31,135 bases of DNA from a virus (taxonomy: Duplodnaviria; Heunggongvirae; Uroviricota; Caudoviricetes): IMG/VR virus record IMGVR_UViG_644736359_000006, one strand, 5' to 3'. Positions 7,115 to 31,135 of the stretch are shown here, in pieces. The notes beneath the pieces were generated by a model, which made no database searches, had not been told where the DNA came from, and saw only the letters and a list, made by a program, of their open reading frames with translations. The position numbers were made by a program, and so were the translations under genes. Position 1 is the first letter of the stretch; the number at the start of each line of letters is the position of its first letter.

Positions 7115-7125
7115 ATCCACTCCAC

Positions 7126-7151
7126 AAAAAAGCCCGCCTGAACCGGCGGGC
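7126..7151 (-). terminator. Rho-independent terminator after lom
   Basis: Stem gcccgcc/ggcgggc (7132-7138, 7145-7151) followed on the minus strand by a run of six U. Confidence 0.55.
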
Positions 7152-7178
7152 TGTCATAACACTGTGTTACCTGGCTAA

Positions 7179-7844: not shown

Positions 7845-9148
7845 TCAGCTAATCATGATGCCTGCAGTGGCTTTCTTCATCACCACAACCAGCAAATCGC
7901 TGATACTTGCTGTGGGATACCAGCCATTTACCAGCCATGCCGATACAGAAAATTCCAGTGTCATTACACCACTGCCTGCAGGCATATCAATAACACCCGT
8001 ATATATCAGCGTATTATCCAGAGCCGTTCGGTTATAAATTTCAGCACCGTTTTTTCGTACTATCAGACGGCATGAGGAGTAGATATCAGTATGATCTTGC
8101 TCATGTTTAGCGCCACTGAATGCCACCGCCGGAATAACAATTTGCCGGTCAAACGGCTGATCGTCATAAACCCTGACGGTAATGGTCCCTGATGGCCACC
8201 GCTCCGGTGCACGGGAGTCCCGGGGGAAAGCTTTGCCCACTGTTTTAACGAGATCGCCTTCAATCTGGTTCGCGGACAGTTTTCCCAGAACCCGGCAGTT
8301 CTCGTTAATCGTGACGTTGTTGAGCGTCCCGGAGTTCGCATTCACGTTACCGCTAATATCGGCATTTTTCGCCGTCAGCCGCCCGTCCGGTGTCAGGGAA
8401 AATGCCGGAGGATTACCGCCGCTGGTAATGGTGGGAGCCGTCAGATATTTCAGGAACACTTCGTTCATGAATATCTGATCGCCCTGACCAACAAACATCG
8501 GCTTTGTGTTGCCATTCGCAGGATTAATCATCGCAATCCTGTCCGCCGCCAGCAGCACCTGACTCTGCATACCGTCAGGGGTATTCTCAATACCGGCACC
8601 AATACCCGCGATATAAAGGCGTCCGTCCTGCATCTGCTGCAGCTTCACAGCCCACATGCTGTTCAGGTTATTATTTGTATCAACCTGAACCTTCTGTATC
8701 TGCTGGATTGCCGCACTCTGGTCTTCCAGTTTCTTATTGACGGTCTGCGTGATTTCATTACTGACATCCGTGATGGACGTTCTGATTTCCGCCAGGTCAG
8801 GCGCAAGCTGACCGTTATCAATCTGCGTCCACAACTCCTGAGCCAGATGGGTTTTCCCTATCTCTCCTTTGAAAAAATTCAGATAGCCGGATGCATCATC
8901 ACTCGGCTGGCCAACAGCCTCCACGAATGCCGATTTGCCAACGGTGTTCACACTGCGGATGTAAAAATAATAATCATGGCCCGGTTTGATATTGATACTG
9001 GCGGCTATCCAGTACAGCGCCGTGCCAAGATAGCGTGCTGTGGTTTCAACCTGCCTGATATCCGCAATCCGCTTTTCCGAGAACCAGAACTCAAACTGTA
9101 CCGTCGGATCATAAACCGCAAGATGCGGCGTGGCGGTTATCTGAAAAT
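7845..9148 (-). pseudogene. Host-specificity protein J (tail tip), C-terminal ~434 codons only, 5' end removed by IS3
   Basis: Long ORF runs without a native start straight into the IS3 left end at 9149; position upstream of lom matches lambda J. Confidence 0.7.
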
Positions 9149-9204
9149 TGATCTTACCCAGCAATAGTGGACACGCGGCTAAGTGAGTAAACTCTCAGTC
9201 AGAG

Positions 9205-9513
9205 GTGACTCACATGACAAAAACAGTATCAACCAGTAAAAAACCCCGTAAACAGCATTCGCCTGAATTTCGCAGTGAAGCCCTGAAGCTTGCTGAACGC
9301 ATCGGTGTTACTGCCGCAGCCCGTGAACTCAGCCTGTATGAATCACAGCTCTACAACTGGCGCAGTAAACAGCAAAATCAGCAGACGTCTTCTGAACGTG
9401 AACTGGAGATGTCTACCGAGATTGCACGTCTCAAACGCCAGCTGGCAGAACGGGATGAAGAGCTGGCTATCCTCCAAAAGGCCGCGACATACTTCGCGAA
9501 GCGCCTGAAATGA
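9205..9513 (+). CDS. insE: IS3 OrfA (InsE), HTH transposase component
   Basis: ORF ...[31 protein letters not shown]... with C-terminal leucine-zipper-like region; first ATG at 9205, conventional start a few codons later. Confidence 0.85.
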
Positions 9514-10376
9514 AGTATGTCTTTATTGAAAAACATCAGGCTGAGTTCAGCATCAAAGCAATGTGCCGCGTGCTCCGGGTGGCCCGCAGCGGCTGGTATA
9601 CGTGGTGTCAGCGGCGGACAAGGATAAGCACGCGTCAGCAGTTCCGCCAACACTGCGACAGCGTTGTCCTCGCGGCTTTTACCCGGTCAAAACAGCGTTA
9701 CGGTGCCCCACGCCTGACGGATGAACTGCGTGCTCAGGGTTACCCCTTTAACGTAAAAACCGTGGCGGCAAGCCTGCGCCGTCAGGGACTGAGGGCAAAG
9801 GCCTCCCGGAAGTTCAGCCCGGTCAGCTACCGCGCACACGGCCTGCCTGTGTCAGAAAATCTGTTGGAGCAGGATTTTTACGCCAGTGGCCCGAACCAGA
9901 AGTGGGCAGGAGACATCACGTACTTACGTACAGATGAAGGCTGGCTGTATCTGGCAGTGGTCATTGACCTGTGGTCACGTGCCGTTATTGGCTGGTCAAT
10001 GTCGCCACGCATGACGGCGCAACTGGCCTGCGATGCCCTGCAGATGGCGCTGTGGCGGCGTAAGAGGCCCCGGAACGTTATCGTTCACACGGACCGTGGA
10101 GGCCAGTACTGTTCAGCAGATTATCAGGCGCAACTGAAGCGGCATAATCTGCGTGGAAGTATGAGCGCAAAAGGTTGCTGCTACGATAATGCCTGCGTGG
10201 AAAGCTTCTTTCATTCGCTGAAAGTGGAATGTATCCATGGAGAACACTTTATCAGCCGGGAAATAATGCGGGCAACGGTGTTTAATTATATCGAATGTGA
10301 TTACAATCGGTGGCGGCGGCACAGTTGGTGTGGCGGCCTCAGTCCGGAACAATTTGAAAACAAGAACCTCGCTTAG
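9510..10376 (+). CDS. insF: IS3 OrfB (InsF), DDE transposase catalytic domain, in -1 frame relative to orfA
   Basis: 288-aa ORF overlapping the orfA stop (ATGA) in the -1 frame; DDE-type core ...HTDRGGQY... Confidence 0.85.
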
Positions 10377-11672: not shown

Positions 11673-11879
11673 CTTCATTTTCACTTTCTTAAATCTAACG
11701 ACAGACGGCTAACATTTAAGTATTGTGAAATATTATCAAATGTAATCATCATTGATTTACAAAAGATACATTTTGCCCCGAAAGGATTCCTGTCAGAAAC
11801 ATCAAAAGATGATGTTCTATACTGAGAACCATGGCAACACGGGCATCTAAAGTGAATATGGTTTGTAATATTTTCTACC

Positions 11880-12092
11880 TCAAAGTGCCACAACATGAAC
11901 AGCCGCGGGGCCTTTAGGTCCGTTCTCAATACCAAATTCGACTTCCTGATTCTCAGTTAACGTTTTGAAATCGTTGCTCTGAATAGCTGAGAAATGGACA
12001 AACACATCTTTGCTACCATCTTTCGGCGTGATGAAACCAAAACCTTTTTCAGGGTTAAACCATTTCACTAAACCAGTCATTTTGTTAGACAT
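11880..12092 (-). CDS. cspI: CspA-family cold shock protein
   Basis: 70-aa product [38 protein letters not shown]... with RNP1/RNP2 motifs; long AT-rich 5' leader upstream. Confidence 0.85.
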
Positions 12093-12455
12093 CATTATTA
12101 CCTTTTGAAGAAGTTAGCCCTTGGGCAGAATGGTCCGAAAAAAAATATCAGAGAGAAAAACCAACAAGGAAATCTCAAGAGGTACAAATAATAAAATTAT
12201 AACAATGACTGCTTCAGATAATTTTGTAACAAACCAGAACACCATTAACGCATGATTAACCAACCATAGCAAGGATTACTTTTGTAAAGAAAAACACACG
12301 AATGAAACAATAGCTTTATTTATTAATAAAACGTGTCATTCTGTCTAATGACCTTTTATCTTACCCTTAAGATTTCAAGGATTTTGACTCATGGAAGAGT
12401 CCTTTTTATTTAAATTTCACATTCAGCGCTAAAAATAATCCGATTTAATATTAAT

Positions 12456-15489: not shown

Positions 15490-16758
15490 CTGATATCATT
15501 GGGGTTACACCAGGTAAGTATAGGTGGAAAATCAATATTCGCCAGTTCAACAATAAGGAAAATCTCATTGCATCACAACTATAAAACCATGTGTTTAACT
15601 CACAAAAAACAAATCATTAAACTAATCTGTTATATTATAATAGCTGCGTGCAATAATAATATTATATGCTCTTAATATTCACTTGAAATATCTTCATATA
15701 AAAACAGATTGAATAAAATCTTTTGGGGCTGGTATGTTTACCAACATTAAATTGCATCTCAATGTTTTCTTTAGCGTGAACAGGATTTTTATAAAAACTG
15801 ACACTATGAGCATCATAGCGTAGTTTTTACGATTGTAAATATCCTGCATACAGGAACTCATCACTTTCAGATGATATCGCATACAGTTAATTCACCATCA
15901 GTCTTAGAGCCAGTTCTTCCGGATAGGGATCGAAGTAATTCTGTGTAAGCAAGTAATCATTAGGATACTCACCCAGATAATGCTTCAGCAGAGTCAACGG
16001 CGCAAGAAGAGGCAATGTGCCAAAGCGATAGTTAAGTATAACCTCGCTCAACTCTTTACGCTGGCGTGTGCTTAAGTAATTACTAAAATACCCCTGTATA
16101 TGCATCAGCACATTCGTGTGATTTTTACGTGATGCTGGTTTTCTGAGAATCGCCATCAGATTATCACGATACACCTCAAAGTATGATTCAAGGTCCGCCC
16201 ACTCGTGTATTGCAGCCACAAATGGTCCCATATCTTTATAGCCTGCCTGGCTATGCGCCAACAACTGAAGCTTATAACGACTATGAAAAGCTAATAACTC
16301 TCTTCTTGATAATTTCTCCTTGTAAAGGTGATTGAGCTCATCCAAAGCAAAAACTCTTTCAATAAAATTCTCACGAAGCACTGGATCATGTAATCGCCCA
16401 TCCTCTTCAACCGGTAGCCAGGAAAACTTTTCCATCAAAGTGCTCGTAAATAGTCCCACTCCATCTTTACGACCTCGATTACCATTTTCATCATAGACAC
16501 GCACGCGCTCCATGCCACAGCTGGGAGATTTAGCACAAACCACAAACCCCGATACATCCTTTAATTTGTCCATATAAGAACGACTAAACTCTGTCATTCT
16601 CTCTGTCACATCCTCATTCTGGTCGTGGCTGAAACACATCCGTATATTTCCTTGCTTCGAGCGCACAAGTCGTAGAGCAGGACGCGGAACTGGCAGCCCT
16701 ATTGATCTTACCCAGCAATAGTGGACACGCGGCTAAGTGAGTAAACTCTCAGTCAGAG

Positions 16759-17067
16759 GTGACTCACATGACAAAAACAGTATCAACCAGTAAAAAACCC
16801 CGTAAACAGCATTCGCCTGAATTTCGCAGTGAAGCCCTGAAGCTTGCTGAACGCATCGGTGTTACTGCCGCAGCCCGTGAACTCAGCCTGTATGAATCAC
16901 AACTCTACAACTGGCGCAGTAAACAGCAAAATCAGCAGACGTCTTCTGAACGTGAACTGGAGATGTCTACCGAGATTGCACGTCTCAAACGCCAGCTGGC
17001 AGAACGGGATGAAGAGCTGGCTATCCTCCAAAAGGCCGCGACATACTTCGCGAAGCGCCTGAAATGA
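16759..17067 (+). CDS. insE: IS3 OrfA (InsE)
   Basis: Identical product to copy 1 orfA. Confidence 0.85.
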
Positions 17068-17930
17068 AGTATGTCTTTATTGAAAAACATCAGGCTGAGT
17101 TCAGCATCAAAGCAATGTGCCGCGTGCTCCGGGTGGCCCGCAGCGGCTGGTATACGTGGTGTCAGCGGCGGACAAGGATAAGCACGCGTCAGCAGTTCCG
17201 CCAACACTGCGACAGCGTTGTCCTCGCGGCTTTTACCCGGTCAAAACAGCGTTACGGTGCCCCACGCCTGACGGATGAACTGCGTGCTCAGGGTTACCCC
17301 TTTAACGTAAAAACCGTGGCGGCAAGCCTGCGCCGTCAGGGACTGAGGGCAAAGGCCTCCCGGAAGTTCAGCCCGGTCAGCTACCGCGCACACGGCCTGC
17401 CTGTGTCAGAAAATCTGTTGGAGCAGGATTTTTACGCCAGTGGCCCGAACCAGAAGTGGGCAGGAGACATCACGTACTTACGTACAGATGAAGGCTGGCT
17501 GTATCTGGCAGTGGTCATTGACCTGTGGTCACGTGCCGTTATTGGCTGGTCAATGTCGCCACGCATGACGGCGCAACTGGCCTGCGATGCCCTGCAGATG
17601 GCGCTGTGGCGGCGTAAGAGGCCCCGGAACGTTATCGTTCACACGGACCGTGGAGGCCAGTACTGTTCAGCAGATTATCAGGCGCAACTGAAGCGGCATA
17701 ATCTGCGTGGAAGTATGAGCGCAAAAGGTTGCTGCTACGATAATGCCTGCGTGGAAAGCTTCTTTCATTCGCTGAAAGTGGAATGTATCCATGGAGAACA
17801 CTTTATCAGCCGGGAAATAATGCGGGCAACGGTGTTTAATTATATCGAATGTGATTACAATCGGTGGCGGCGGCACAGTTGGTGTGGCGGCCTCAGTCCG
17901 GAACAATTTGAAAACCAGAACCTCGCTTAG
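17064..17930 (+). CDS. insF: IS3 OrfB (InsF)
   Basis: As copy 1 but ...EQFENQNLA instead of ...EQFENKNLA. Confidence 0.85.
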
Positions 17931-18979: not shown

Positions 18980-19372
18980 TTATTTCGAACAATCAGCATC
19001 CATCTCCAATCGGAGATCCAACACCATCAGCATGCCCTCCACTACGCCCTCAGCTTTCTGGAGCATCCTGCCAACCCAACAATCAGATCGCCCATGCTTA
19101 CGTGCAAGCGCCATAAAAGTCATGCCGCCGACATAATAGTCCACCAATAAATCATGTAAATCGCTGTTGTTTTTTTTCAGGCGAGCCATACATTCACAAA
19201 TGATCATCGCGTCATCGTCACAGCATTGCGGACGAGATCTTACTTTTGAAGGAATTAATCCCTTAAAACCGGCGGCAATGGACGACCAGGTCACATCTTC
19301 ATGATTATTAGCCGCCCATGCCCCCCAACGCTCAAGAACCATCTGAATATCACGCATCAACTTACTCCACAA
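18980..19372 (-). CDS. quuQ: Late-gene antiterminator Q (QuuD/QuuQ family)
   Basis: ORF ...[75 protein letters not shown]...; alternative start at 19357. Confidence 0.7.
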
Positions 19373-19374
19373 AA

Positions 19375-20025
19375 TTAGGCCAGCACACCAATTGCCAGCG
19401 CGCGATCGATAAATCGAAAAATCAGCTCCAGTTGGGAGCCATACTTCTCTTCAAATGCCACGGTATCCGTATGCAACTCGTCGTGATGCTTTCTGCACAA
19501 AGGCAAAACAAAGAGATCATGTGCTTTGGTTCCCATTCCGCCCTGCCCGTGACCAATCAGATGATGCGGATCGTCGGCTGGCATACCGCAGCAAGCACAC
19601 GGCTGTGTCTTAACCCAGCGTGTGTATTTCTCCTTAACCCACCGGTGACGTTTAGGCAGCTTCATGAAAGATTCCGGAGACTCTGGATCAACGGTGATGC
19701 TTACCACCGTCTTTTCCTGTGATGGGTTTTGTTGCTGGTGGGCGTGAGGCAACGGTGCAAGATTTTTTGTGCGCTGTTTCAATATGCTGGTGGCGGTCTG
19801 CTCTCCCGGTACGATGTCGCTTTCGCGGTACACCGAGCAGATTTTTTCCGCTGGTAATCCCAGCGAGCGACGTAATACCGCTTCCGGTAGCGCGTCCGCC
19901 AGCTGATTGCGGACCGCCCACCAGGATACCCGGGTATTGTGGAATACCGGCATGGATTCACGGCCCGGCTTAACGACCACCAGCCCAAGTTCCGGTACCA
20001 GAACAGGTCGAAGTAATACCCGCAC
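19375..20025 (-). CDS. DUF968-like nuclease-domain protein (YdfU-like)
   Basis: C-terminal ...[46 protein letters not shown]...; N-terminal half unrecognised; GC-rich with several overlapping shadow ORFs. Confidence 0.5.
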
Positions 20026-20026
20026 G

Positions 20027-20305
20027 TTACCTCCAGATGCGTTGCTGGAATGTACGGGACGGACGCGGTGGGCGTTCGGAGTAAGGCAATCTGACTGAGA
20101 TTATCCAGTGACGGTAGTCGAGACTAAGGGCTTTCTTAACCTCGTATCCGCGCCTGCGGTAACACTGAATTATCCATTCAGCCTGCTCTTCAGTGCATGG
20201 AGGGTGTTGGAACCATTCAGACTTGAATGCGTGAGAATACCGCTCGTGCGTGCAGACAAGAACGGGCGAATTATCAGAATTGTAATATTTTACGTTGCGT
20301 GCCAT
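20027..20305 (-). CDS. Hypothetical nin-region protein
   Basis: 92-aa ORF, stop 2 nt before the DUF968 start (operon coupling). Confidence 0.4.
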   Translation of the reverse strand: MARNVKYYNSDNSPVLVCTHERYSHAFKSEWFQHPPCTEEQAEWIIQCYRRRGYEVKKALSLDYRHWIISVRLPYSERPPRPSRTFQQRIWR

Positions 20306-20371
20306 CGGTTTTCTCCGGTGGCACGGTGTTACTCAGCGGGAGTTCAGCCCCGCGCAAGATTGTAGATGAGT

Positions 20372-20623
20372 TTATTCTTCTGCAAAAGCTGAAAAGCCTG
20401 CTTTTATTCCGATCTCTTTCAGTGCCTGTAATGAAGTGACAAACTCACCTTCGCGCAAGATAAATCCGTCTGTCACTCGACCATCCACAAAATTAATTAA
20501 CGCAGCCCCATTCTTTCGCAAACACATAATGCGGTAATGACTAACAAGATTTCCATTTTCAACGCACACAGCATAGAGGCCATCTTCACAAAAATTTTTA
20601 CGCAGTTCTTCGATGTTCATCAT
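20372..20623 (-). CDS. Hypothetical protein at the rem position
   Basis: 83-aa ORF; length and position relative to hok match rem of Qin, but sequence not verified. Confidence 0.4.
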   Translation of the reverse strand: MMNIEELRKNFCEDGLYAVCVENGNLVSHYRIMCLRKNGAALINFVDGRVTDGFILREGEFVTSLQALKEIGIKAGFSAFAEE

Positions 20624-20740
20624 CAGAATCCTTCCGGATAATTAGCTCTCCCCTTTAAGGGACCATCCCTCTTATCCCTGCGCGCTACTTAAGTATTTTT
20701 GATTCTATTCCGGCACCGTCCAGAACTTCAAACGCGTTGA

Positions 20741-20769
20741 AAATAAAAACAAAAACCCGCCGAAGCGGG
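20741..20769 (-). terminator. Rho-independent terminator downstream of hok
   Basis: Stem cccgc/gcggg with cgaa loop, followed on the minus strand by UUUUUGUUUUUAUUU. Confidence 0.6.
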
Positions 20770-20839
20770 TTAAGTGCGAGTGCGTTGAGGATGCCTGCCA
20801 CATCAGAGGTGGCGAGGGATTTCTCCCTCGCCGGGTCTC

Positions 20840-20995
20840 TTACTCCTCAGGTTCGTAAGCTGTGAAGACAGCGACCTCCGTCTGGCCGGTTCGGATTCGT
20901 ACCTCGCAGAGGTCTTTCCTCGTTACCAGTGCCGTCACTATGACGGTTAAACAGATGACGATCAGGGCGATTAACATCGCCTTTTGCTGCTTCAT
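20840..20995 (-). CDS. hokD: Hok-family type I toxin
   Basis: 51-aa product MKQQKAMLIALIVICLTVIVTALVTRKDLCEVRIRTGQTEVAVFTAYEPEE; in-frame upstream extension (mok-like) in the ORF track; AAGGAGAAG RBS. Confidence 0.85.
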   Translation of the reverse strand: MKQQKAMLIALIVICLTVIVTALVTRKDLCEVRIRTGQTEVAVFTAYEPEE

Positions 20996-21607
20996 AGCCT
21001 GCTTCTCCTTGCCTTTCGGCACGTAAGAGGCTAACCTACATGTGTCTAGCATGAAATTGGCCTCAGATTAATGTTAAGCGTCTTGCAGGACGCGTAATGT
21101 TAACTGGGGCTTTTCTCTATCTGCCGTTGGTGTTCATGCCCGAGGCAGATAGCCTCAAGCACCCGCAGCCATTCTACTTAACTACCGTTACCTCTCCAAT
21201 ATGAAATCAATCAGAAAGGTGATCCATAAGAACAATAACAAGACAATAAATTGCCATTACAGCCACAATAGCCAGCGTGCATTTGAGAACCAGCACATAA
21301 ATCTCCTGCTCTTGACGTATACAGGCACTGATAAATATGTGTCTTCGTGCTCGTTACTTCAATACGTAAGCGTCAGTTGCGCGTAATCAAATCAGACAAC
21401 CGACTTTAAACCAGGGACAAACAGCAGGTAAAATAATCAAACGTTATTTTAAGCCATATCATGGCTGCAAGATTTCCTCTAATTTCAACAAGATGAGCAG
21501 GTCATTGCTTGCACTGATGACCTGCTCATTAATCATGATTATTTGAAAATTAAGGTAGGCGTACTATATATAGAAACACTGCTACGCTCCGTTGGCATAA
21601 TATAAAA

Positions 21608-22294
21608 TCATTCCTGGCCTTCTTTACCGTAGTGGAGTTGACCAATTTTGATTAGAGGGCGTCCCTGAGATTTGCGGTGTAGATTGGTATCGCGCAGTGA
21701 ATACACGCAGCCACAATATTCCTGCTGATAGAATTGTTCGCGCTTGCTGATTTCAATCATGCGGGAAGAGCCGCCCTGCTTTCGCCAGTTATAATCCCAG
21801 TACACCATGCCCGGATAATACGCGACGGCTCGCCGTCCACAGTCGTTAACCTGCTGCATATTTTTCCAGCGTGAAATGCCCAGTGAGCTACTGATCACAC
21901 TGAAACCATTTTCAGCGGCATACAGCGCAGTCCGCTCAAAACGCATGTCAAAACACATGGTACAACGGATCCCTCGTTCAGGCTCCCATTCCATTCCTTT
22001 GGCTCGCTCAAACCAGTTGTCTGTGTCGTAATCAGCATCAATAAATGGCACGCCGTGTTGTTTAGCAAAGCGAATATTCTCATCCTTACGAATTAAATAC
22101 TCTTTCTGAGGATGAATGTTCGGGTTGTAGAAAAAGATGGTGTAGTCGATTCCCGAGGCCTGAAGCGCCTCCATCACTTCACCGGAACATGGAGCACAGC
22201 AAGAGTGCAGTAATAGTTTTTTTGCCCCGTTTGGGAGCTCCAATTTGGGGCGTTTGAAATCAGCAACAGTCATAAATGTGTTTATGAGGTTCAT
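21608..22294 (-). CDS. QueH-like (DUF208) epoxyqueuosine reductase homologue
   Basis: Motifs [12 protein letters not shown] near the N-terminus and [10 protein letters not shown] near the C-terminus; start codon uncertain (ATG 22294 or 22273, or GTG 22387), none with a clear RBS. Confidence 0.5.
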
Positions 22295-22326
22295 GAAAAT
22301 AGCAAAAAGTGTAGCATCAGAACGGG

Positions 22327-22560
22327 CTATCGGAAACAGATGTCTAAATCTGGTAATGTCTGCTTTTGATGCAAAGCAGACAACCACGGCAGCGCACGAA
22401 AATCAGCTATAATGTCGGGATTAATAATCGGGTGACGTCCATCACATAGCGAATGTTCCTCTTTCCTGATATCGCTAAATATCGACCATTCGTCATTCTT
22501 ATCGAACCAGAGCATGCGACTGCCACAGCACATGTCGAGAATGGTAGCCGATGTACTCAC
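22327..22560 (-). CDS. Small ORF with DMCCGS motif, possibly 5' part of a frameshift-split gene
   Basis: GTG start overlapping the upstream stop (GTGA) with GAGGTGA RBS; product ...[19 protein letters not shown]...; frame overlaps the QueH-like frame by ~60 nt. Confidence 0.3.
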
Positions 22561-22979
22561 AGCATCACCTCCCGATAATTCCCCTGATAAAACGTCAGAA
22601 CACGCTGCATAACTTCGCTCTTCCGGCACTCGCGACAGATTATGTTTAGACGACTGTCGTAGCGGCGTATTTCTCCATCAGGTAATGACCAGATAAGGTC
22701 CGGATCAACCACAGCAGGTTTCTTCACCTTTGCCCTCGAGAGTTTTTTGCGGGCGTTTTGCCAGTCCTTACGCGCCTGTTCAGACGGGAATAACCCGTAG
22801 CCGGAGTTGTATACATCGCCACTGGCTACCAGCTCTCTGGCAAGAACGCTCATCAGATATCTAGTCGCACCTGTTTTAGCTTCCAGTTGCCGTAACGTCT
22901 CACGACCGCTCTGGCGCACGAGTTCCACCACCTGCCCTTTAATTTTTTCCCGCTCTTCTTGTGTAAAAACTTTTGCCAC
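22557..22979 (-). CDS. Hypothetical protein, possible DNA-binding
   Basis: 140-aa basic ORF with C-terminal ...ICRECRK... cysteine pair; family not recognised. Confidence 0.45.
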   Translation of the reverse strand: MAKVFTQEEREKIKGQVVELVRQSGRETLRQLEAKTGATRYLMSVLARELVASGDVYNSGYGLFPSEQARKDWQNARKKLSRAKVKKPAVVDPDLIWSLPDGEIRRYDSRLNIICRECRKSEVMQRVLTFYQGNYREVML

Positions 22980-23019
22980 AACTCCCCCTTAAAATTACCT
23001 CATGACCTGAAATCAACAC

Positions 23020-24039
23020 TTATCCTCTGAAACCAGGCGGAATTTCTGTATCCGGTTCAGAAATATGATTAACACAACGCTGTACAGGTGAACGTCCCAG
23101 GCGGATGACCAGTTCGTCCCATTTTTCGCGGAGCTTTGACGGGCTCATGATGTTTTTTACCCAGAATGGATCTCGCTGAACCCGACCAAACATTTCGCAA
23201 ATTTGTCTGTGGCTTCTGCCATCCAGCATCCGCATTGTGCGCACGTCATTGGCCCAGGCAGTCCAGTTAGGCTCTTTTGGTCGCATGATCTCGCCATCAT
23301 CACTGGCTGCCTGTTCGTAGAGACCCACGATCCGCCCCCAGATCCACTGCGCACACGCCAAATCCTCCCTGCTACCCCACTGGCGTTTTTTCGCACTAAA
23401 CACAACCGCGTCGGAGTTCCGGGTTAAAAAATCCTGTTCAGTCGTCTGCGGGTCCGGTTGCGAAGCTTCCGGACGAAAAGTGTTTTTATTCTCTGTAGTA
23501 ATCTCTGTTGTATTCTCTGTAAGATCATCAGGCCATTTTGACCCGATGACATTGGATCGTTTTGAACCAATGGAGCGTTTCATTTTGACCTCTTCCATCG
23601 TGTCATTTTGACCTGATGGAGCGGCGCATTTTGAACCGATGGATTCGTTCAATTTGCCACCATCTAAAAGCTCGCTCCCATAGTTGATCGTGTAGAAATT
23701 GGTCATATCGCGCTTTGATTTATTGAGCTTTTCACAACGCAAAAGCCCCAGCGTTTTCAGACTTGCAAACGCGCGCTTTAACGTTGACTCTGACCAGAAT
23801 GGGAACTGTTCCAGCCATTGTTCCGTTGTGTTATAAATCCAGCGAACACCATCACATTCCATACCGGAGTTGGTATCTCTCAACCAGTAGTGCAGTTGTT
23901 GCAAAACAATGGCTTCGTTTAAGCCGATTTTCATTGCCAGCTGCGTGTTTATAACCAGTGGGCGTTCAGCAAAAAGAAGACTCATAATTCCATCCAGCTT
24001 TTTGTTGGTATTGCTGTCGATACGCAAGCTTGAAAGCAA
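23020..24039 (-). CDS. Phage replication initiator (O-like / replisome organiser)
   Basis: 339-aa ORF; N-terminal ...PLVINTQLAMKIGLNEAIVLQQLHYWL... HTH region; central SIGSK repeats encoded by iterons; likely start at internal MSLLFAERP (23985). Confidence 0.6.
   Translation of the reverse strand: MLSSLRIDSNTNKKLDGIMSLLFAERPLVINTQLAMKIGLNEAIVLQQLHYWLRDTNSGMECDGVRWIYNTTEQWLEQFPFWSESTLKRAFASLKTLGLLRCEKLNKSKRDMTNFYTINYGSELLDGGKLNESIGSKCAAPSGQNDTMEEVKMKRSIGSKRSNVIGSKWPDDLTENTTEITTENKNTFRPEASQPDPQTTEQDFLTRNSDAVVFSAKKRQWGSREDLACAQWIWGRIVGLYEQAASDDGEIMRPKEPNWTAWANDVRTMRMLDGRSHRQICEMFGRVQRDPFWVKNIMSPSKLREKWDELVIRLGRSPVQRCVNHISEPDTEIPPGFRG
23534..23661. repeat. Origin-like iterons inside the replication gene
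   Basis: 5-6 copies of CATTTTGA(C/A)C...ATGGAGCG with ~23-bp period; adjacent 23490-23520 has three TCTCTGT repeats and AT-rich DNA. Confidence 0.65.
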
Positions 24040-24487
24040 TTGCTTTTTCTATAAGTTCGTCAGTTTCACGATCTACAACGGCAGGATCTGCAAAAAGCAG
24101 TCCGGATTCCACCACATCGCCATATTCTTTATTTAACCCGGCGATCATGTACGTAATACTTTTTCCATCACTGATCTCACGATACAACCTGAAATCACTA
24201 ATCCGGATAGCCTCCATAATTGCAGGCACTAGCGCTGTGAACTTTTCACGCTTATCCCTGGTGTCGATAGCCTTCCAGCGTTCGAATATCTTCACTCGAT
24301 TAACGCTAAGCGCTCGCTGATCAACCGCGCCACCTTCATATGTGACACGCTGAACATCGATGTTCGGGCGCTCTTTCAAAGCCCAGAATGCTTCAGTGAT
24401 TAATATCGTCGCCTGCTCCTGTGTCATTCCTGGTCGACATATCCAGGCATCCAGAGCCTCACGAGCCTGTTCAGGAGTGATTTTCAT
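23966..24487 (-). CDS. Hypothetical protein at the cII position
   Basis: 173-aa ORF overlapping both neighbours (operon coupling); possibly YdaT-like, not verified. Confidence 0.4.
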   Translation of the reverse strand: MKITPEQAREALDAWICRPGMTQEQATILITEAFWALKERPNIDVQRVTYEGGAVDQRALSVNRVKIFERWKAIDTRDKREKFTALVPAIMEAIRISDFRLYREISDGKSITYMIAGLNKEYGDVVESGLLFADPAVVDRETDELIEKAIAFKLAYRQQYQQKAGWNYESSFC

Positions 24488-24701
24488 TGTTCAACCGCCC
24501 CGCCCGCTTCGTCTTACGATATTCGTCATAAACTTTGGGATCATACTGAAGCTCCCCGCCAGATGCCTCCTGTAGACGCATCGCGCGACCTTCAGGAACC
24601 AGTATCCCCCAAGCAGCAACACTTGCCAGTCTCACTCCTGCGGCATTGGCAAGCTTTGTTTTGCTGCCAAAAAAAGTAATTGCGTCAACTTTAAGCATCA
24701 A
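24471..24701 (-). CDS. dicC: DicC-like (Cro-like) regulator
   Basis: 76-aa ORF MMLKVDAITFFGSKTKLANAAGVRLASVAAWG... with HTH; divergent from dicA across a 77-bp operator region. Confidence 0.65.
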   Translation of the reverse strand: MMLKVDAITFFGSKTKLANAAGVRLASVAAWGILVPEGRAMRLQEASGGELQYDPKVYDEYRKTKRAGRLNNENHS

Positions 24702-24710
24702 AGCCCCCTC

Positions 24711-24730
24711 TTGTTAGACTTTTCTAACAT
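24711..24730. promoter_or_regulatory. Operator palindrome in dicC-dicA intergenic region
   Basis: TTGTTAGA-cttt-TCTAACA inverted repeat. Confidence 0.55.
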
Positions 24731-24778
24731 TATTGTGCGCGGGATACCTAAGTCAAGAAAAATTAGAATTACCTAACT

Positions 24779-25186
24779 ATGGATACAAGAACCCTAGGCC
24801 AGCGAGTTCTGGCGCGACGAAAAGAATTACGCTTAACACAACGAGAAGCTGCGCGCCTCGCTGGAGTTGCTCACGTCACAATTTCACAATGGGAAAGAGA
24901 CGAAACCCAGCCAGTCGGAAAACGATTGTTTGCTTTAGCGGATGCTCTGAAGTGCTCACCTACATGGCTAATGTTTGGTGACGAAGACAAGGCACCAGTG
25001 CCTGCACAAGAACTTCATGTGGAAACAGAGCTAACTCCCAACCACAAAGAATTGATCGAATTATTCGATGCTCTTCCATCTTCCGAGCAGGAAGCCTTGC
25101 TGTCTGAAATGCGCGCAAGAGTAGAAAACTTCAACAAACTCTTCGAAGAAATGCTTAAAGCGCGTAAAAATAAATCAATAAAATAA
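24779..25186 (+). CDS. dicA: DicA-family XRE HTH repressor
   Basis: 135-aa ORF with motifs ...LTQREAARLAGVAHVTISQWERDETQP...SPTWLMFGDEDK...MRARVENFNKLFEEMLKARK. Confidence 0.85.
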   Translation: MDTRTLGQRVLARRKELRLTQREAARLAGVAHVTISQWERDETQPVGKRLFALADALKCSPTWLMFGDEDKAPVPAQELHVETELTPNHKELIELFDALPSSEQEALLSEMRARVENFNKLFEEMLKARKNKSIK

Positions 25187-25221
25187 CATTCTTTTCAAGT
25201 GATTAGTTGCGCCCACCCTTT

Positions 25222-25278
25222 TTGTTAGATCAATCTAACAAAAAACACTTGCCTCTCATGTTAGGTTATTCTAAATTA
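25222..25278 (+). promoter_or_regulatory. Putative DicA-repressed promoter/operators of the dicB operon
   Basis: Second copy TTGTTAGA-tcaa-TCTAACAA (25222-25241), candidate -35 TTGCCT (25250-25255) and -10 TAAATT (25273-25278) at 17-bp spacing, degenerate third half-site pair TGTTAGG..TCTAAAT over the spacer. Confidence 0.5.
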
Positions 25279-25354
25279 CTTTCCATCAAGACACCGCACG
25301 GTGTTCTCAGCAAACAGTTCCGCTACCCCGGCGTTAAGGGGAAATGAGGTCAGC

Positions 25355-25507
25355 ATGGATACTATCGATCTTGGCAACAGCGAATCTCTGGTATGTGGCG
25401 TGTTCCCCAACCAGGACGGTACGTTCACCGCGATGACATATACCAAAAGCAAAACGTTTAAAACCGAATCTGGCGCGCGTTGCTGGTTAGCCAGAAACAC
25501 TGACTGA
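25355..25507 (+). CDS. ydfA: YdfA-like small protein
   Basis: 50-aa product MDTIDLGNSESLVCGVFPNQDGTFTAMTYTKSKTFKTESGARCWLARNTD; GAGG RBS. Confidence 0.6.
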   Translation: MDTIDLGNSESLVCGVFPNQDGTFTAMTYTKSKTFKTESGARCWLARNTD

Positions 25508-25884
25508 TGAGGCTGACGATGGAATTTAAAGATTTACCGTCTGATGTACAGAAAACAGCAGCTCATACATTGCATTCTGTGCTGCGAGAAATCGGGAAAG
25601 ATATTGCAAGCGAGCCAGCAAAAGATCTGGCCCGGAAAATCAAGACCGCTTTCGTTGAGCTTTATAATGTTGGCACTGACTCTGAAACTGTCGAGACCAA
25701 GACCGTAAGTTCACCAATATTCTCACTTGAGCCAGGCGTATTATCAGGTGAAATATGCACCGAGATTTCCAGCGAACTGCTTCCGGTAATACGAGAAGCA
25801 ATTTGCCGTCGCGGTTTGGATGGAAGTTACGATCATGACGTCCTGCAAGTTCTCAGGACAATGGTGACTTCACTGGGGATTTGA
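25507..25884 (+). CDS. YdfB/YdfC-like protein (single 125-aa ORF)
   Basis: Start overlaps the ydfA stop (TGATG); family assignment from position only. Confidence 0.5.
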   Translation: MRLTMEFKDLPSDVQKTAAHTLHSVLREIGKDIASEPAKDLARKIKTAFVELYNVGTDSETVETKTVSSPIFSLEPGVLSGEICTEISSELLPVIREAICRRGLDGSYDHDVLQVLRTMVTSLGI

Positions 25885-26053
25885 TCCCTGCGTCCTCTAA
25901 CCTTTTGATATAGCGGTCCTCCAAGAAGCGGTAAATTTTGTCGAAATCATCTTTCCCCTCTGGTTTATTCAGAGGATTACAGGACCCGTAAGTAGCGGCA
26001 TACATTTCAACCGTTTTATCAAAAATATAAGAGACAAATTCTTCTTTAGTCAT
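25853..26053 (-). CDS. Candidate antisense small protein inside the dicB operon
   Basis: 66-aa ORF MTKEEFVSYIFDKTVEMYAATYGSC... with AAGGAA RBS 6-7 nt upstream of ATG; convergent overlap with the 125-aa gene. Confidence 0.35.
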   Translation of the reverse strand: MTKEEFVSYIFDKTVEMYAATYGSCNPLNKPEGKDDFDKIYRFLEDRYIKRLEDAGIKSPVKSPLS

Positions 26054-26327
26054 ATAGATTTCCTTCTTGGTTATTCGGGATAAGAAGGATACCACCTCGC
26101 CTGACGTGGTTAAAAGCAGGCACACAACACGAAAGCGCACGGCGAAGTTCGTCTCACTGTACGGTGTCGTTAAATTTAATTCGACCGTGCGCTTCCGGTT
26201 GTGGCAACCCGCGAAATGGCGCGGCGGTAAGTATGGCGGGGTTATTCCTTCCCCGTTGAGGACACCGAGTTGTCAGGTTGACCATACGCTTAAGTGACAA
26301 CCCCGCTGCAACGCCCTCTGTTATCAA

Positions 26328-26380
26328 TTTTCTGGTGACGTTTGGCGGTATCAGTTTTACTCCGTGACTGCTCTGCCGCC
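26328..26380 (+). ncRNA. dicF: DicF small RNA
   Basis: Sequence tttctggtgacgtttggcggtatcagttttactccgtgactgctctgccgcc followed by gttttt matches the 53-nt DicF with its 3' terminator hairpin. Confidence 0.85.
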
Positions 26381-26555
26381 GTTTTTAAAGTGAATTTTGT
26401 GATGCGGTGAATGCGGCTAAGCGCACGCGGAACAGTTAAAACCAAAAACAGTGTTATGGGTGGATTCTCTGTATCCGGCGTTAATTGTTAACTGGTTAAC
26501 GTCACCTGGAGGCACCAGGCACTGCATCACAAAATTCATTGTTGAGGACGCGATA

Positions 26556-26744
26556 ATGAAAACGTTATTACCAAACGTTAATACGTCTGAAGGTTGTTTT
26601 GAAATTGGTGTCACTATCAGTAACCCTGTATTTACTGAAGATGCCATTAACAAGAGAAAACAAGAACGGGAGCTATTAAATAAAATATGCATTGTTTCAA
26701 TGCTGGCTCGTTTACGTCTGATGCCAAAAGGATGTACACAATGA
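26556..26744 (+). CDS. dicB: Cell division inhibitor DicB
   Basis: 62-aa product MKTLLPNVNTSEGCFEIGVTISNPVFTEDAINKRKQERELLNKICIVSMLARLRLMPKGCTQ; GAGGA RBS. Confidence 0.85.
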   Translation: MKTLLPNVNTSEGCFEIGVTISNPVFTEDAINKRKQERELLNKICIVSMLARLRLMPKGCTQ

Positions 26745-26932
26745 ATTCAGCATTTGCGCTTGTTCTGACAGTTTTTCTTGTTTCCGGAGAGCCAGTTGAT
26801 ATTGCAGACAGTGTTCACAGGACAATGCAGGAGTGTATGACTGCAGCAACCGAACAGAAAATTCCCGGTAACTGTTACCCGGTCGATAAAGTTATTCACC
26901 AGGATAATATCGAAATCCCGGCAGGTCTTTAA
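26741..26932 (+). CDS. ydfD: YdfD-like small membrane (lysis-associated) protein
   Basis: 63-aa product with N-terminal hydrophobic helix; ATG overlaps the dicB stop (ATGA). Confidence 0.75.
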   Translation: MNSAFALVLTVFLVSGEPVDIADSVHRTMQECMTAATEQKIPGNCYPVDKVIHQDNIEIPAGL

Positions 26933-27025
26933 AACAGTTCCGTAATAAATATCCGGTTTCATTCTTATATGCCAGCAATGGCAGGGATTTGTTCATCCTT
27001 AAATCTGTCATGAGGTTAAAACAAA

Positions 27026-29497
27026 ATGAGTAAAGTCTTTATTTGCGCCGCTATTCCTGACGAACTGGCAACAAGGGAAGAAGGCGCTGTGGCTGTAGCC
27101 ACAGCCATTGAAGCTGGCGACGAACGCCGTGCTCGAGCAAAATTTCACTGGCAGTTCCTGGAACATTATCCGGCTGCTCAGGACTGCGCTTATAAATTTA
27201 TTGTCTGCGAGGATAAACCTGGCATACCCCGCCCTGCCCTCGATTCATGGGATGCTGAATATATGCAGGAAAACCGCTGGGATGAGGAGTCTGCTTCTTT
27301 TGTCCCGGTTGAGACTGAATCCGATCCGATGAACGTCACTTTTGACAAGCTGGCCCCTGAAGTACAGAACGCTGTCATGGTTAAGTTCGACACATGTGAA
27401 AACATCACCGTTGATATGGTTATTAGCGCACAGGAATTGTTGCAGGAAGACATGGCAACATTCGACGGACATATCGTTGAAGCGTTGATGAAAATGCCAG
27501 AAGTTAACGCCATGTATCCGGAGCTTAAGTTGCACGCCATTGGGTGGGTTAAGCATAAATGTATTCCTGGTGCTAAATGGCCCGAAATTCAGGCAGAGAT
27601 GCGCATCTGGAAAAAACGTCGCGAAGGTGAACGCAAGGAAACCGGAAAATACACGTCTGTTGTTGATCTCGCCCGCGCCAGAGCCAATCAACAGTACACT
27701 GAAAATTCAACAGGAAAAATCAGCCCGGTCATTGCTGCCATTCATCGCGAATACAAGCAGACATGGAAAACACTGGATGACGAACTGGCCTACGCTCTCT
27801 GGCCTGGTGATGTGGATGCCGGAAACATTGACGGCAGCATCCATCGCTGGGCAAAAAAAGAAGTTATCGACAACGACCGCGAAGACTGGAAGCGTATCTC
27901 GGCATCAATGCGCAAACAGCCTGATGCCCTTCGCTACGACCGCCAAACTATTTTTGGCCTTGTCCGTGAGCGTCCGATCGACATTCACAAAGATCCCGTA
28001 GCACTGAACAAATATATCTGCGAATACCTGACGACAAAGGGCGTGTTTGAGAATGAAGAAACAGACCTGGGCACTGTTGATGTTCTCCAGTCATCAGAAA
28101 CACAAACTGATGCAGTGGAAACTGAGGTATCTGATATCCCAAAAAATGAAACCGCGCCGGAAGCTGAACCATCTGTAGAGCGTGAGGGGCCGTTCTATTT
28201 CCTCTTCGCAGATAAGGACGGAGAAAAATACGGTCGCGCAAACAAACTTTCTGGTCTGGATAAGGCACTGGCTGCTGGCGCCACTGAAATCACAAAAGAA
28301 GAATATTTTGCCCGAAAAAATGGCACATACACGGGCTTACCGCAAAATGTAGATACCGCTGAAGATTCAGAACAACCAGAGCCGATAAAAGTTACCGCTG
28401 ACGAAGTAAACAAAATTATGCAGGCAGCCAATATCAGCCAGCCTGACGCCGATAAGTTGCTTGCTGCATCACATGGTGAATTTGTTGAAGGGATTAGTGA
28501 CCCGAATGATCCGAAATGGGTTAAGGGGATCCAGACCCGCGATTCTGTGAACCAGAACCAGCATGAATCGGAACGGAACTACCAAAAAGCGGAACAAAAC
28601 AGCCCAAATGCGTTACAAAACGAGCCAGAAACGAAACAGCCTGAACCAGTGGCGCAACAGGAAGTGGAAAAAGTCTGCACCGCCTGCGGTCAGACCGGCG
28701 GCGGCAACTGCCCTGATTGTGGCGCGGTGATGGGCGACGCAACATACCAAAAAACATTCGATGAAGAGTATCAGGTTGAAGTTCAGGAAGATGATCCGGA
28801 GGAAATGGAAGGCGCTGAACATCCACACAAGGAGAACACTGGCGGCAATCAGCATCACAATAGCGATAATGAAACTGGCGAGACGGCAGATCACTCAATT
28901 AAGGTGAACAGTCATCACGAAATCACATCCACCAGCAGGACGTGTGACCATCTAATGATCGACCTTGAAACCATGGGAAAAAATCCTGATGCACCGATCA
29001 TCTCAATAGGTGCAATATTTTTCGATCCGCAAACCGGAGATATAGGACCGGAATTTAGTAAGACTATCGATCTGGAAACTGCTGGCGGAGTCATTGATCG
29101 GGACACCATTAAATGGTGGCTTAAGCAATCACGCGAAGCACAATCTGCCATTATGACCGATGAAATCCCGCTAGATGATGCACTGTTACAATTGCGGGAA
29201 TTTATCGACGAAAACTCCGGTGAATTTTTTGTTCAGGTTTGGGGAAATGGAGCCAACTTCGACAACACGATTTTGCGCCGTTCATACGAACGGCAGGGGA
29301 TCCCCTGCCCGTGGCGTTACTACAACGATCGCGATGTACGCACAATCGTTGAGCTGGGGAAAGCCATAGATTTCGATGCCAGAACGGCTATTCCATTCGA
29401 AGGTGAGCGCCATAATGCACTTGATGACGCCCGTTACCAAGCAAAATACGTTTCAGTTATCTGGCAAAAACTGATCCCGAGTCAGGCTGATTCTTAA
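27026..29497 (+). CDS. ydfE: Full-length YdfE-type exonuclease: RecE-like N-terminal region, zinc ribbon, C-terminal DnaQ-like DEDDh 3'-5' exonuclease domain
   Basis: 823-aa ORF; ...ADKLLAASHGEFVEGISDPNDPKWVKGIQTRDSV... ; CTACGQ...CPDCG; C-terminal MIDLETMGKNPDAPIISIGAIFFD...HNALDDARYQAKY. Confidence 0.75.
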   Translation: MSKVFICAAIPDELATREEGAVAVATAIEAGDERRARAKFHWQFLEHYPAAQDCAYKFIVCEDKPGIPRPALDSWDAEYMQENRWDEESASFVPVETESDPMNVTFDKLAPEVQNAVMVKFDTCENITVDMVISAQELLQEDMATFDGHIVEALMKMPEVNAMYPELKLHAIGWVKHKCIPGAKWPEIQAEMRIWKKRREGERKETGKYTSVVDLARARANQQYTENSTGKISPVIAAIHREYKQTWKTLDDELAYALWPGDVDAGNIDGSIHRWAKKEVIDNDREDWKRISASMRKQPDALRYDRQTIFGLVRERPIDIHKDPVALNKYICEYLTTKGVFENEETDLGTVDVLQSSETQTDAVETEVSDIPKNETAPEAEPSVEREGPFYFLFADKDGEKYGRANKLSGLDKALAAGATEITKEEYFARKNGTYTGLPQNVDTAEDSEQPEPIKVTADEVNKIMQAANISQPDADKLLAASHGEFVEGISDPNDPKWVKGIQTRDSVNQNQHESERNYQKAEQNSPNALQNEPETKQPEPVAQQEVEKVCTACGQTGGGNCPDCGAVMGDATYQKTFDEEYQVEVQEDDPEEMEGAEHPHKENTGGNQHHNSDNETGETADHSIKVNSHHEITSTSRTCDHLMIDLETMGKNPDAPIISIGAIFFDPQTGDIGPEFSKTIDLETAGGVIDRDTIKWWLKQSREAQSAIMTDEIPLDDALLQLREFIDENSGEFFVQVWGNGANFDNTILRRSYERQGIPCPWRYYNDRDVRTIVELGKAIDFDARTAIPFEGERHNALDDARYQAKYVSVIWQKLIPSQADS

Positions 29498-29569
29498 TGT
29501 TCAACTGTCGCCGGTTGTGACTGGTATTCTGCAACCGGCGCTCGTCTGATGTAAGAGATAAAGAAATCG

Positions 29570-29821
29570 ATGAGCGAAGTAATCATGATTGTCTCTCCCG
29601 GCAAATGGGTATCCGAAGAGCAGTTAATTGCGCTGAAAGGAATAAAAAAAGGTACGTTAAAAAAGGCCCGGGAAAAATCGTTTATGGAAGGAAGGGAATA
29701 TAAGCATGTCGCTCATGACGGTATGCCATGGGATAACAGTCCATGCTTTTACAACCTGGAAGAAATTGATCGCTGGATTGAGCGCCAGGCATCAGCGAGA
29801 CCAAGACGTCATCTTACTTGA
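29570..29821 (+). CDS. xis: Excisionase-like protein
   Basis: 83-aa ORF immediately upstream of int; basic, small; family recognition moderate. Confidence 0.55.
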   Translation: MSEVIMIVSPGKWVSEEQLIALKGIKKGTLKKAREKSFMEGREYKHVAHDGMPWDNSPCFYNLEEIDRWIERQASARPRRHLT

Positions 29822-29840
29822 CTAAAAGCCACACTAACTA

Positions 29841-31135
29841 ATGAGAGAAGTTGAAATGAAATATCCGACAGGCGTGGAAAACCATGGAGGGAAATTACGT
29901 ATCTGGTTTGTTTATAAAGGCGTAAGAGTCAGGGAAAATCTGGGGGTTCCTGACACAGCAAAAAACAGGCGCGTTGCAGGTGAACTACGCGCCTCTGTTT
30001 GTTACGCAATAAAAACTGGTGTTTTCGACTATGCAAAACAGTTTCCCTCCTCACGCAATCTGGAAAAATTTGGTGAGGCCCGACAAGATTTAACCATAAA
30101 AGAACTGGCTGAAAAATTTCTGGCACTAAAAGAAACTGAAGTCGCCAAAACATCACTCAACACATACCGTGCCGTCATCAAAAATATCCTGAGCATAATC
30201 GGTGAAAAAAATCTTGCCTCATCGATTAATAAAGAAAAATTACTGGAGGTTCGTAAAGAGCTACTGACTGGATACCAGATCCCCAAAAGTAACTATATTG
30301 TTACACAACCAGGGAGATCGGCTGTAACTGTAAATAATTACATGACAAATCTTAACGCCGTGTTCCAGTTTGGTGTTGATAACGGTTACCTGGCAGATAA
30401 TCCGTTTAAGGGGATCTCGCCATTAAAGGAATCAAGAACCATTCCGGATCCTCTTTCGCGGGAGGAATTTATCCGTCTTATCGATGCGTGCAGAAATCAG
30501 CAAGCAAAAAATTTATGGTGTGTTTCTGTTTATACTGGCATTCGCCCTGGTGAGCTGTGTGCACTTGGATGGGAGGACATAGATCTGAAAAATGGAACAA
30601 TGATGATCAGGAGAAATTTAGCAAAAGACCGTTTCACGGTACCAAAAACACAGGCGGGAACCAATCGGGTCATTCATCTTATTAAGCCAGCAATCGACGC
30701 TCTCCGGAGTCAGATGACATTAACGAGACTGAGCAAAGAGCATATCATTGATGTTCACCTCAGAGAGTATGGCAGAACAGAAAAACAAAATGCACCTTTG
30801 TTTTTCAACCTGAAGTGTCAGCGAGAGTAAAAAATTATGGTGACCATTTTACCGTTGACTCAATAAGGCAGATGTGGGACGCAGCGATAAAACGTGCCGG
30901 ACTCCGCCATCGAAAATCATATCAGTCGAGACATACTTATGCCTGCTGGTCGCTGACAGCTGGTGCTAACCCGGCATTTATAGCAAACCAGATGGGCCAT
31001 GCAGATGCGCAAATGGTATTTCAGGTATACGGAAAATGGATGTCTGAAAACAATAATGCACAGGTAGCTTTGTTAAATACACAGTTAAGCGAGTTTGCCC
31101 CAACCATGCCCCATAACGAAGCAATGAAAAATTAA
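29841..31135 (+). pseudogene. intQ: Tyrosine integrase, lambda-type, split by a frameshift near 30812-30830
   Basis: ORF 29841-30830 (N-terminal/core-binding part ...TGIRPGELCALGWEDIDL...) continues in another frame from 30815 (...HTYACWSLTAGANPAFIANQMGH..YGKWM..) containing the catalytic R/H/Y region. Confidence 0.75.

Follow-up and report, generated by a model that had tools for sequence, protein, structure and literature searches.

Predicted operators of a P22-type immunity switch in the Qin-like prophage of Escherichia coli B

Does a palindrome that recurs at two promoters of a prophage immunity region mark the operators of the prophage repressor? This question is raised by a stretch of 31,135 nucleotides of prophage DNA (hereafter the window), in which TGTTAGA-N4-TCTAACA had been noticed between dicC and dicA and again, with a degenerate third site, upstream of ydfA. 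The original prediction held that one repressor controls both its divergent partner and the downstream dicF-dicB-ydfD toxic operon. As judged from the sites and from related loci, the palindromes can be predicted with high confidence to be operators of a DicA-type prophage repressor at its two target promoters. The switch is a known one, already described for K-12 and laid out as in phage P22; the locus adds an ordinary new allele to it and leaves the accepted picture unchanged.

The immunity region of a Qin-like prophage

The window is a Qin-like prophage of the E. coli B lineage, and its positions 19000-31135 are 100% identical to chromosomes of this lineage, including ATCC 11303 and B derivatives. 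The E. coli B annotation lists a Q antiterminator, rem, hokD, a YdaT-family protein, a Cro/CI family regulator and an HTH protein, followed by a DUF1391 protein, two hypothetical proteins, dicB, ydfD, exonuclease, excisionase and a frameshifted integrase. Pfam, Rfam, this annotation and the identities to K-12 bore out the earlier gene calls for dicC, dicA, ydfA, dicF, dicB and ydfD, and DicA proved to be a divergent allele. The dicC and dicA genes are divergent and separated by an 80-bp gap. Coordinates are collected in Table 1.

Table 1. Predicted operators, candidate promoters and genes of the immunity region and its surroundings.
Feature	Position	Strand	Description
Oc, OR1-equivalent	24712-24729	strandless	perfect palindrome TGTTAGActttTCTAACA; TTGTTAGActttTCTAACA with flanking T is 24711-24729
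Om, OR2-equivalent position	24736-24753	strandless	TGCGCGGgataCCTAAGT; half-site in right half only; overlaps dicC -35
Oa, OR3-equivalent	24761-24778	strandless	AATTAGAattaCCTAACT; 4 mismatches; immediately 5' of dicA ATG
Distal OL operator, P22 OL2 position	25223-25240	strandless	perfect palindrome TGTTAGAtcaaTCTAACA
Proximal OL operator, P22 OL1 position	25259-25276	strandless	TGTTAGGttatTCTAAAT; 3/14 mismatches
Candidate dicC promoter, PR-equivalent	24729-24756	-	-35 TTGACT 24756-24751, 16-nt spacer, -10 AATAAT 24734-24729; 10/12 matches (sigma-70 scan)
Candidate dicBp, PL-equivalent	25249-25277	+	-35 TTGCCT 25249-25254, 17-nt spacer, -10 TAAATT 25272-25277
rem, homologue of K-12 antirepressor	20372-20623	-	'protein Rem' in identical E. 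coli B record
dicC, Cro-like regulator, 75 aa	24471-24698	-	Pfam P22_Cro E = 4.9e-12; 86% identity to K-12 DicC; annotated CDS; WP_000921596.1
dicA-type repressor, 135 aa	24779-25186	+	Pfam HTH_3 only; 57% identity to K-12 DicA; WP_000381212.1
ydfA (DUF1391)	25355-25507	+	Pfam and annotation; first gene 3' of dicBp
DicF small RNA	26330-26381	+	Rfam RF00039, 72.5 bits, E = 2.3e-14
dicB, cell division inhibitor	26556-26744	+	Pfam DicB 136 bits; annotated
ydfD (DUF1482), lysis protein	26741-26932	+	Pfam and annotation

Several other features of the prophage were recorded. At the prophage end (30815-31135), the integrase carries a frameshift according to the E. coli B annotation, so that the prophage probably cannot excise despite its intact early left arm. 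The arm carrying exonuclease, xis and int is intact in the window and truncated in K-12. Between ydfA and dicF (region 25519-26053), a 121-aa ORF without Pfam match replaces the ydfB and ydfC genes of K-12, and its end is overlapped by a 66-aa ORF on the opposite strand (25853-26053). Transcription reading through from dicBp could be disturbed by such a convergent gene, which would lie within the presumed dicB operon. An IS-like element is present inside the prophage in two identical, directly repeated copies (9147-9446 and 16701-17000) at a distance of 7554 bp, and their ORF pairs (9205-10376 and 16759-17930) each consist of overlapping 102-aa and 288-aa ORFs; the segment between them could be lost or inverted by recombination. 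Rfam also detected typical Qin cargo, namely a sok antitoxin RNA beside hokD (20840-21164) and, on the minus strand, a thermoregulator 5' UTR of the cspA type (11834-12250).

Operator-like sites and candidate promoters

A pattern search confirmed that the palindrome is present at both promoters. Two exact matches to TGTTAGA-N4-TCTAACA were found in 31,135 bases against 0.00 expected from 100 dinucleotide-preserving shuffles, none of which (0/100) held a copy. The first, Oc, sits between the minus-strand 75-aa ORF and the plus-strand 135-aa ORF, where it adjoins the -10 and overlies the inferred +1 of the leftward dicC promoter. The second is part of TTGTTAGAtcaaTCTAACAA at 25222-25241, located 36 nt past the stop codon of the 135-aa ORF; the palindrome ends 8 nt 5' of the -35 and its arms reach 12 nt (25219-25230 and 25233-25244). 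When up to 3 mismatches were allowed, only 25259-25276 joined the two perfect sites. This stringency is weak when taken alone (16/100 shuffles give at least 3 matches), and the third site was accepted because of its position and the comparison with other loci, not because of the count. Its left half is operator-like and its right half also serves as the -10. The proposal that the downstream sites cover the promoter was right for this degenerate site, which lies over the spacer and the -10, and wrong for the perfect palindrome, which is placed 5' of the -35 and not over it.

In an independent repeat search, the three sites and the C-rich 5' flank that precedes each of them fell into a single repeat family of 25 nt; the search also found 24760-24777 to be complementary to 25260-25277, in the third site, at 16/18 positions. 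The scan for further copies that had been suggested at the outset added the weak site Oa in the immunity region, and the half-site Om was recognised there in register with P22 OR2; both had been missed earlier. The tally in the window is two strong sites, two weak full sites and the half-site at 24736-24753. No copy with 3 or fewer mismatches was detected beyond the immunity region in the whole-window scan, and the 4-mismatch matches elsewhere, two of which fall within the two IS copies, look like chance.

Among the candidate promoters, the dicC one carries a TTGACT element ('agtcaa' on the plus strand) that is kept in most related loci. The dicBp candidate was not called by the sigma-70 consensus scan (8/12, under threshold) and its hexamers are weak. 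It was retained because its positions are identical to those of K-12 and P22: it aligns hexamer by hexamer with K-12 TTGACC/TAATCT and with the annotated P22 PL (TTGACC/TAAATT) and its 5' nucleotide. From the position of the annotated P22 PL start, the dicBp +1 would lie at A25285 in CCATCAA. Further starts are predicted near 24722 on the minus strand and, for dicA, at A24779 or 2-3 nt before it.

The repressor gene itself may be expressed from within its own operator. Leaderless repressor mRNAs are known from P22 and from lambda PRM. In the window, a -10-like TAGAAT (24764-24769) lies inside Oa and ends 9 nt before the dicA ATG, and no Shine-Dalgarno sequence was found 5' of this ATG in the Oa region. 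Because of these two features and the reported leaderless dicA mRNA of K-12 (PMC4681348, Fig. 2A), Oa and the dicA promoter probably overlap in the manner of OR3 and PRM, and the dicA mRNA of the window is itself probably leaderless. The 'TTTAGAATTACCTAACT-ATG' element is far better conserved than Oc across immunity types.

Palindromes downstream of a gene could also be RNA or DNA hairpins, such as a terminator after dicA or a processing signal. Indeed, 25219-25244 can fold into an 11-bp hairpin (-9.6 kcal/mol, z = -5.7) located 33 nt past the dicA stop codon. However, it is followed by a run of A instead of T on the plus strand and by AGGG on the minus strand, so it is no intrinsic terminator, and the hairpin stems are A+T-rich. 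For the third site, folding gave no hairpin (-2.4 kcal/mol, z = -0.4). Moreover, the K-12 counterpart TGTTAGCtataGCATACA and many other loci have kept the half-site sequence and lost the pairing, and the co-variation described below links the half-site sequences of distinct sites, a pattern not expected from hairpins. We consider a hairpin function very improbable and retain the operator interpretation.

Correspondence with the immunity regions of P22 and K-12

Residues 1-71 of DicA align to the N-terminal DNA-binding domain of the P22 C2 repressor (E = 1.3e-18; PDB 1adr, 2r1j). The annotated P22 record marks OR1-3, PR, PRM, the 5' nucleotide of the RM transcript, OL1-3 and PL, and its operators align with the window in one register (ACTAAAGgaatCTTTAGTcaagtttATTTAAGatgaCTTAACTatg in P22 with TGCGCGGgataCCTAAGTcaagaaaAATTAGAattaCCTAACTatg in the window, and ATTTAAGttttCTTCAAAaatacaCTTGACCatttAATTAAGaagtCTTAAATTttagCCATCA with TGTTAGAtcaaTCTAACAaaaaacaCTTGCCTctcaTGTTAGGttatTCTAAATTactttCCATCA). 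Upstream of the repressor gene, P22 reads ACTAAAGgaatCTTTAGT-caagttt-ATTTAAGatgaCTTAACT-ATG and the window TGCGCGGgataCCTAAGT-caagaaa-AATTAGAattaCCTAACT-ATG; downstream, P22 reads ATTTAAGttttCTTCAAA-aatacaCTTGACCattt-AATTAAGaagtCTTAAATT-ttagCCATCA and the window TGTTAGAtcaaTCTAACA-aaaaacaCTTGCCTctca-TGTTAGGttatTCTAAATT-actttCCATCA. By this alignment Oc, Om and Oa are the predicted counterparts in position of OR1, OR2 and OR3, the perfect downstream palindrome that of OL2 and the degenerate site that of OL1.

The likeness extends to the homologous N-terminal domains of the repressors, the homologous Cro proteins and the 18-bp operators built 7-4-7. The order OR2, 'caag', OR3, ATG is in identical register, as is the order OL2, 7 nt, CTTGnC, 5 nt, OL1/-10 TAAATT, 5 nt, CCATCA. 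The -10 TAAATT is located in the right half of the degenerate site, as in P22. The repressor mRNA would be nearly leaderless in both systems; the P22 RM transcript begins 4 nt before the ATG, and Oa is in register with OR3. In contrast, the half-sites are different (TGTTAGA in the window, ATTTAAG in P22), the OR2 counterpart is shrunk to a half-site and no OL3 equivalent was recognisable in the window when it was aligned in register to the annotated P22 record. The PL-type promoter drives ydfA-dicF-dicB in the window and gene 24 (N-like) in P22. DicA is also shorter (135 versus 216 aa): Pfam found an HTH only and no C-terminal S24/LexA-like autocleavage domain, and the PDB match ends at residue 71. 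Since this domain is missing, which agrees with published K-12 DicA (PMC10448788), induction would be expected to go through an antirepressor and not RecA.

The operator architecture of K-12 Qin was published in 1986-88 (Bejar et al. 1986, 1988). In the account of Bejar et al. 1988 given by Ragunathan et al. 2023 (PMC10448788), the dicAC locus resembles a lambdoid immunity region, with three operator-like sequences in each of the dicA-dicC and dicA-dicBp intergenic regions. K-12 DicA binds in vivo to the 20-nt inverted repeat Oc, TTGTTAGTCATAACTAACAA, a binding which is abolished by one A-to-C change, and at Oc it represses dicC and activates dicA (Yun et al. 2012, PMC3441716). The downstream operators are predictions even in K-12, because the DicA site at dicB is listed as low-evidence, with its location unknown, in the database summary used by the Reg-Seq authors (PMC7567609).

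The window resembles K-12 Qin in its gene order (ydaT-like, dicC, dicA, ydfA ... dicF, dicB, ydfD, with rem nearby), its 135-aa repressor and the equal intergenic lengths. Oc, Om, Oa and the two sites flanking the dicBp -35 are at matching positions, with the same 7-4-7 geometry and 6/7 identical half-site bases (TGTTAG). In the fetched K-12 sequence, TGTTAGTcataACTAACA is in register with the window Oc TGTTAGActttTCTAACA, and the dicBp -35 (TTGACC) is flanked by TGTTAGCtataGCATACA and TGTTAGTcatgGCTAATC, which are TGTTAGC... and TGTTAGT... sites. The two alleles differ in the recognition helix (VAHVTISQWER in the window DicA, ISHVSVSQWER in K-12 DicA) and in the innermost half-site base, which is swapped symmetrically (TGTTAGA/TCTAACA versus TGTTAGT/ACTAACA). 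In addition, the distal downstream site is a perfect palindrome in the window and a degenerate one in K-12, and similarity to K-12 breaks off directly past the -10.

Since dicC, which encodes a DNA-binding protein of the P22_Cro family, lies beside the sites, these could mainly be bound by DicC, or by DicC only at the downstream promoter. In lambdoid phages Cro and repressor share their operators, and dicC affects dicBp switching in K-12 (PMC10448788). However, dicA deletion in K-12 derepresses dicBp 22-fold and dicC deletion has no such effect (PMC10448788), and it is DicA that binds Oc in vivo (PMC3441716). DicC has also remained 86% identical between K-12 and the window, whereas DicA (57%) and the operators have diverged together, which points to DicA as the specificity partner. 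An exclusive use of the sites by DicC is not likely, and we regard this reading as improbable; a use shared by DicA and DicC is likely. Because Om and Oa of K-12 were not bound by DicA in the in vivo assay (data not displayed; PMC3441716), it may be DicC or the promoter, and not DicA, for which the two weak upstream sites are used. That one repressor acts at both promoters is the established model for K-12 Qin; for the window, this model is indirectly supported by the K-12 experiments, by the correspondence with P22 OR and OL and by the co-variation of 13 immunity types presented below, but 'one' is incomplete, as DicC, by analogy with P22 and lambda, probably shares the sites.

Half-sites across immunity types and their meaning

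An alignment search for DicA homologues, restricted to one genome per species, gave 57 loci, and the set was enlarged by four regions taken from genomes of E. coli and from an Stx2a phage. The palindromes, whose absence from homologous loci had been named as the observation that would speak against the proposal, are present there. The same layout (operator, about 8 nt, -35, 4 nt, operator with -10, about 6 nt, CCATCAA) recurs in Escherichia, Citrobacter, Buttiauxella, Enterobacter, Pantoea, Erwinia, Rahnella, Rosenbergiella, Superficieibacter and others. The core half-sites vary by type (TTAGA, TTAGG, TTAGT, CTTAGG, TTGAG, TAAAG), and a change at the divergent promoter is matched at both downstream sites (Table 2). 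Cores were compared in Citrobacter, Enterobacter, Buttiauxella, Rahnella, Rosenbergiella, Superficieibacter, O157:H7, the Stx2a phage and P22. They track the recognition helix, with VAHVTIS paired to TTAG(A/G), ISHVSVS to TTAG(T/C) and VS(G/D)SSISLWE to TTGAG.

Table 2. Half-sites at the divergent promoter and at the two downstream sites in different immunity types.
Type	Divergent-promoter site	Downstream sites
Window	TGTTAGA	TGTTAGA and TGTTAGG
K-12	TGTTAGT	TGTTAGC and TGTTAGT
Enterobacter, and E. coli/Stx2a-phage type	CCTTAGG or CCTTAGA	ACTTAGG, and CCTTAGG or TCTTAGA
Buttiauxella	TATTGAGttttCTCAATA	CATTGAGttttCTCAATT
O157:H7	TTGAG core, variant flanks	TTGAG core, variant flanks
Rahnella	ATTTAGGaataCCTAAAC	ATTTAGTtattCCTAAAT

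In a half-site table of 13 types, read by eye and in register, the promoter-proximal site differed from its own divergent-promoter site by 1.23 mismatches of 7 and from those of other types by 2.92, and the distal site by 1.23 and 3.20, respectively; in both cases 0/100,000 permutations were as good. An automated test, in which the best upstream 18-mer of a locus was compared with its own downstream region and with those of 12 other operator groups, agreed with the reading by eye (3.15 own versus 4.78 cross mismatches, 0/20,000 permutations as good); automatic site choice was in the wrong register in several distant loci (L026, L028, L029, L036 and L040) and used a wrong anchor in one more (L018), and the statistics were still significant. 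The left half of the predicted third site follows the immunity type, and by this comparison the site has a role beyond that of a -10 box. Its right half, TCTAAAT, could be conserved through its -10 function alone.

The last reading to be weighed is that the repeat is a chance or recombination-scar duplication without function. Immunity regions are mosaic, and the similarity to K-12 that ends just after the -10 would fit a recombination scar. Against it, none of the 100 shuffles held an exact copy, and the matching layout is found with other half-sites in many genera. In E. ruysiae and E. albertii, the half-sites are kept despite altered spacers and flanks; in E. albertii, the DicA of which is 99% identical, the sites are TGTTAGAtattCCTAACA and TGTTAGAccaaTCTAACA. 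The comparative data effectively refute a functionless duplication, which we hold to be the least credible of the alternatives, and operators are the interpretation that we pursue.

Two variants were noticed among the E. coli loci. Strain DP051 has an identical DicA, but the right half of its distal palindrome is TCTAAAA instead of TCTAACA (the C is lost), and represents a natural operator variant that can be compared for repression strength. In AMSCJX02 (6052-7219), a Rha-family regulator gene is inserted into dicB of an otherwise identical immunity region, leaving a dicB fragment and a second, complete dicB; this insertion is missing from the window.

Taken together, the sites are very probably operators belonging to a lambdoid immunity switch of the P22 type, carried by the Qin-like prophage of E. 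coli B; this prediction is drawn from comparative sequence data. Established here are the sites and their geometry, the way in which they correspond to those of P22 and K-12, and the fact that they co-vary with immunity type; for the allele of the window, we infer binding, transcription starts, dimeric stoichiometry and the roles of DicC and Rem. A dimer of the 135-aa DicA-type repressor would bind 18-bp sites (7 + 4 + 7) with the half-site TGTTAGA. At Oc, DicA would shut off the promoter of the cro-like dicC and, by analogy with K-12, would also stimulate the weak leaderless dicA promoter, whose putative -10 falls inside the weak site Oa. On both downstream sites, it would exclude RNA polymerase from the promoter of ydfA...dicF-dicB-ydfD, and this occupancy would keep the toxic division inhibitors silent. 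DicC, acting on shared sites with another order of preference, would probably make the switch bistable. Relief would come from Rem, encoded 4 kb away and the likely antirepressor, or from switching, as in K-12, where dicBp is derepressed 22-fold by dicA deletion and 165-fold by Rem (PMC10448788). A DNA loop joining the two perfect sites, at a distance of 511 bp, was also considered; the spacing is not conserved, with a gap from the dicA stop to the distal site of about 35 to about 140 nt among loci.

When the literature was searched for the exact operator strings, K-12 Oc alone came up, and no study of the E. coli B allele of the window was found in the searchable literature. This allele possibly represents a distinct immunity specificity, a tentative proposal resting largely on the symmetric swap of the innermost base (T/A to A/T), the central spacer and the changed recognition helix, and one in which we place somewhat less than even confidence. 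If it is true, DicA of the K-12 type and of the B type would not cross-regulate, and the P22-like repressors and operators would form a graded natural series (TTAGA, TTAGG, TTAGT, CTTAGG, TTGAG, TAAAG) from which a recognition code may be read.

Cloning of K-12 Oc on a high-copy plasmid is toxic. The exact operators and promoter given here can guide the cloning of the region or the titration of the repressor with multicopy operator DNA. The comparative table pins the predicted position of DicA at dicBp, for which at least one database summary lists the location as unknown (PMC7567609). In derivatives of E. coli B such as BL21 and relatives of REL606, which are workhorse strains, the switch would restrain two division inhibitors, DicF and DicB, together with YdfD, a lysis protein. 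The overall importance of the finding is modest. The comparative table also offers natural repressor/operator pairs for studies of specificity.
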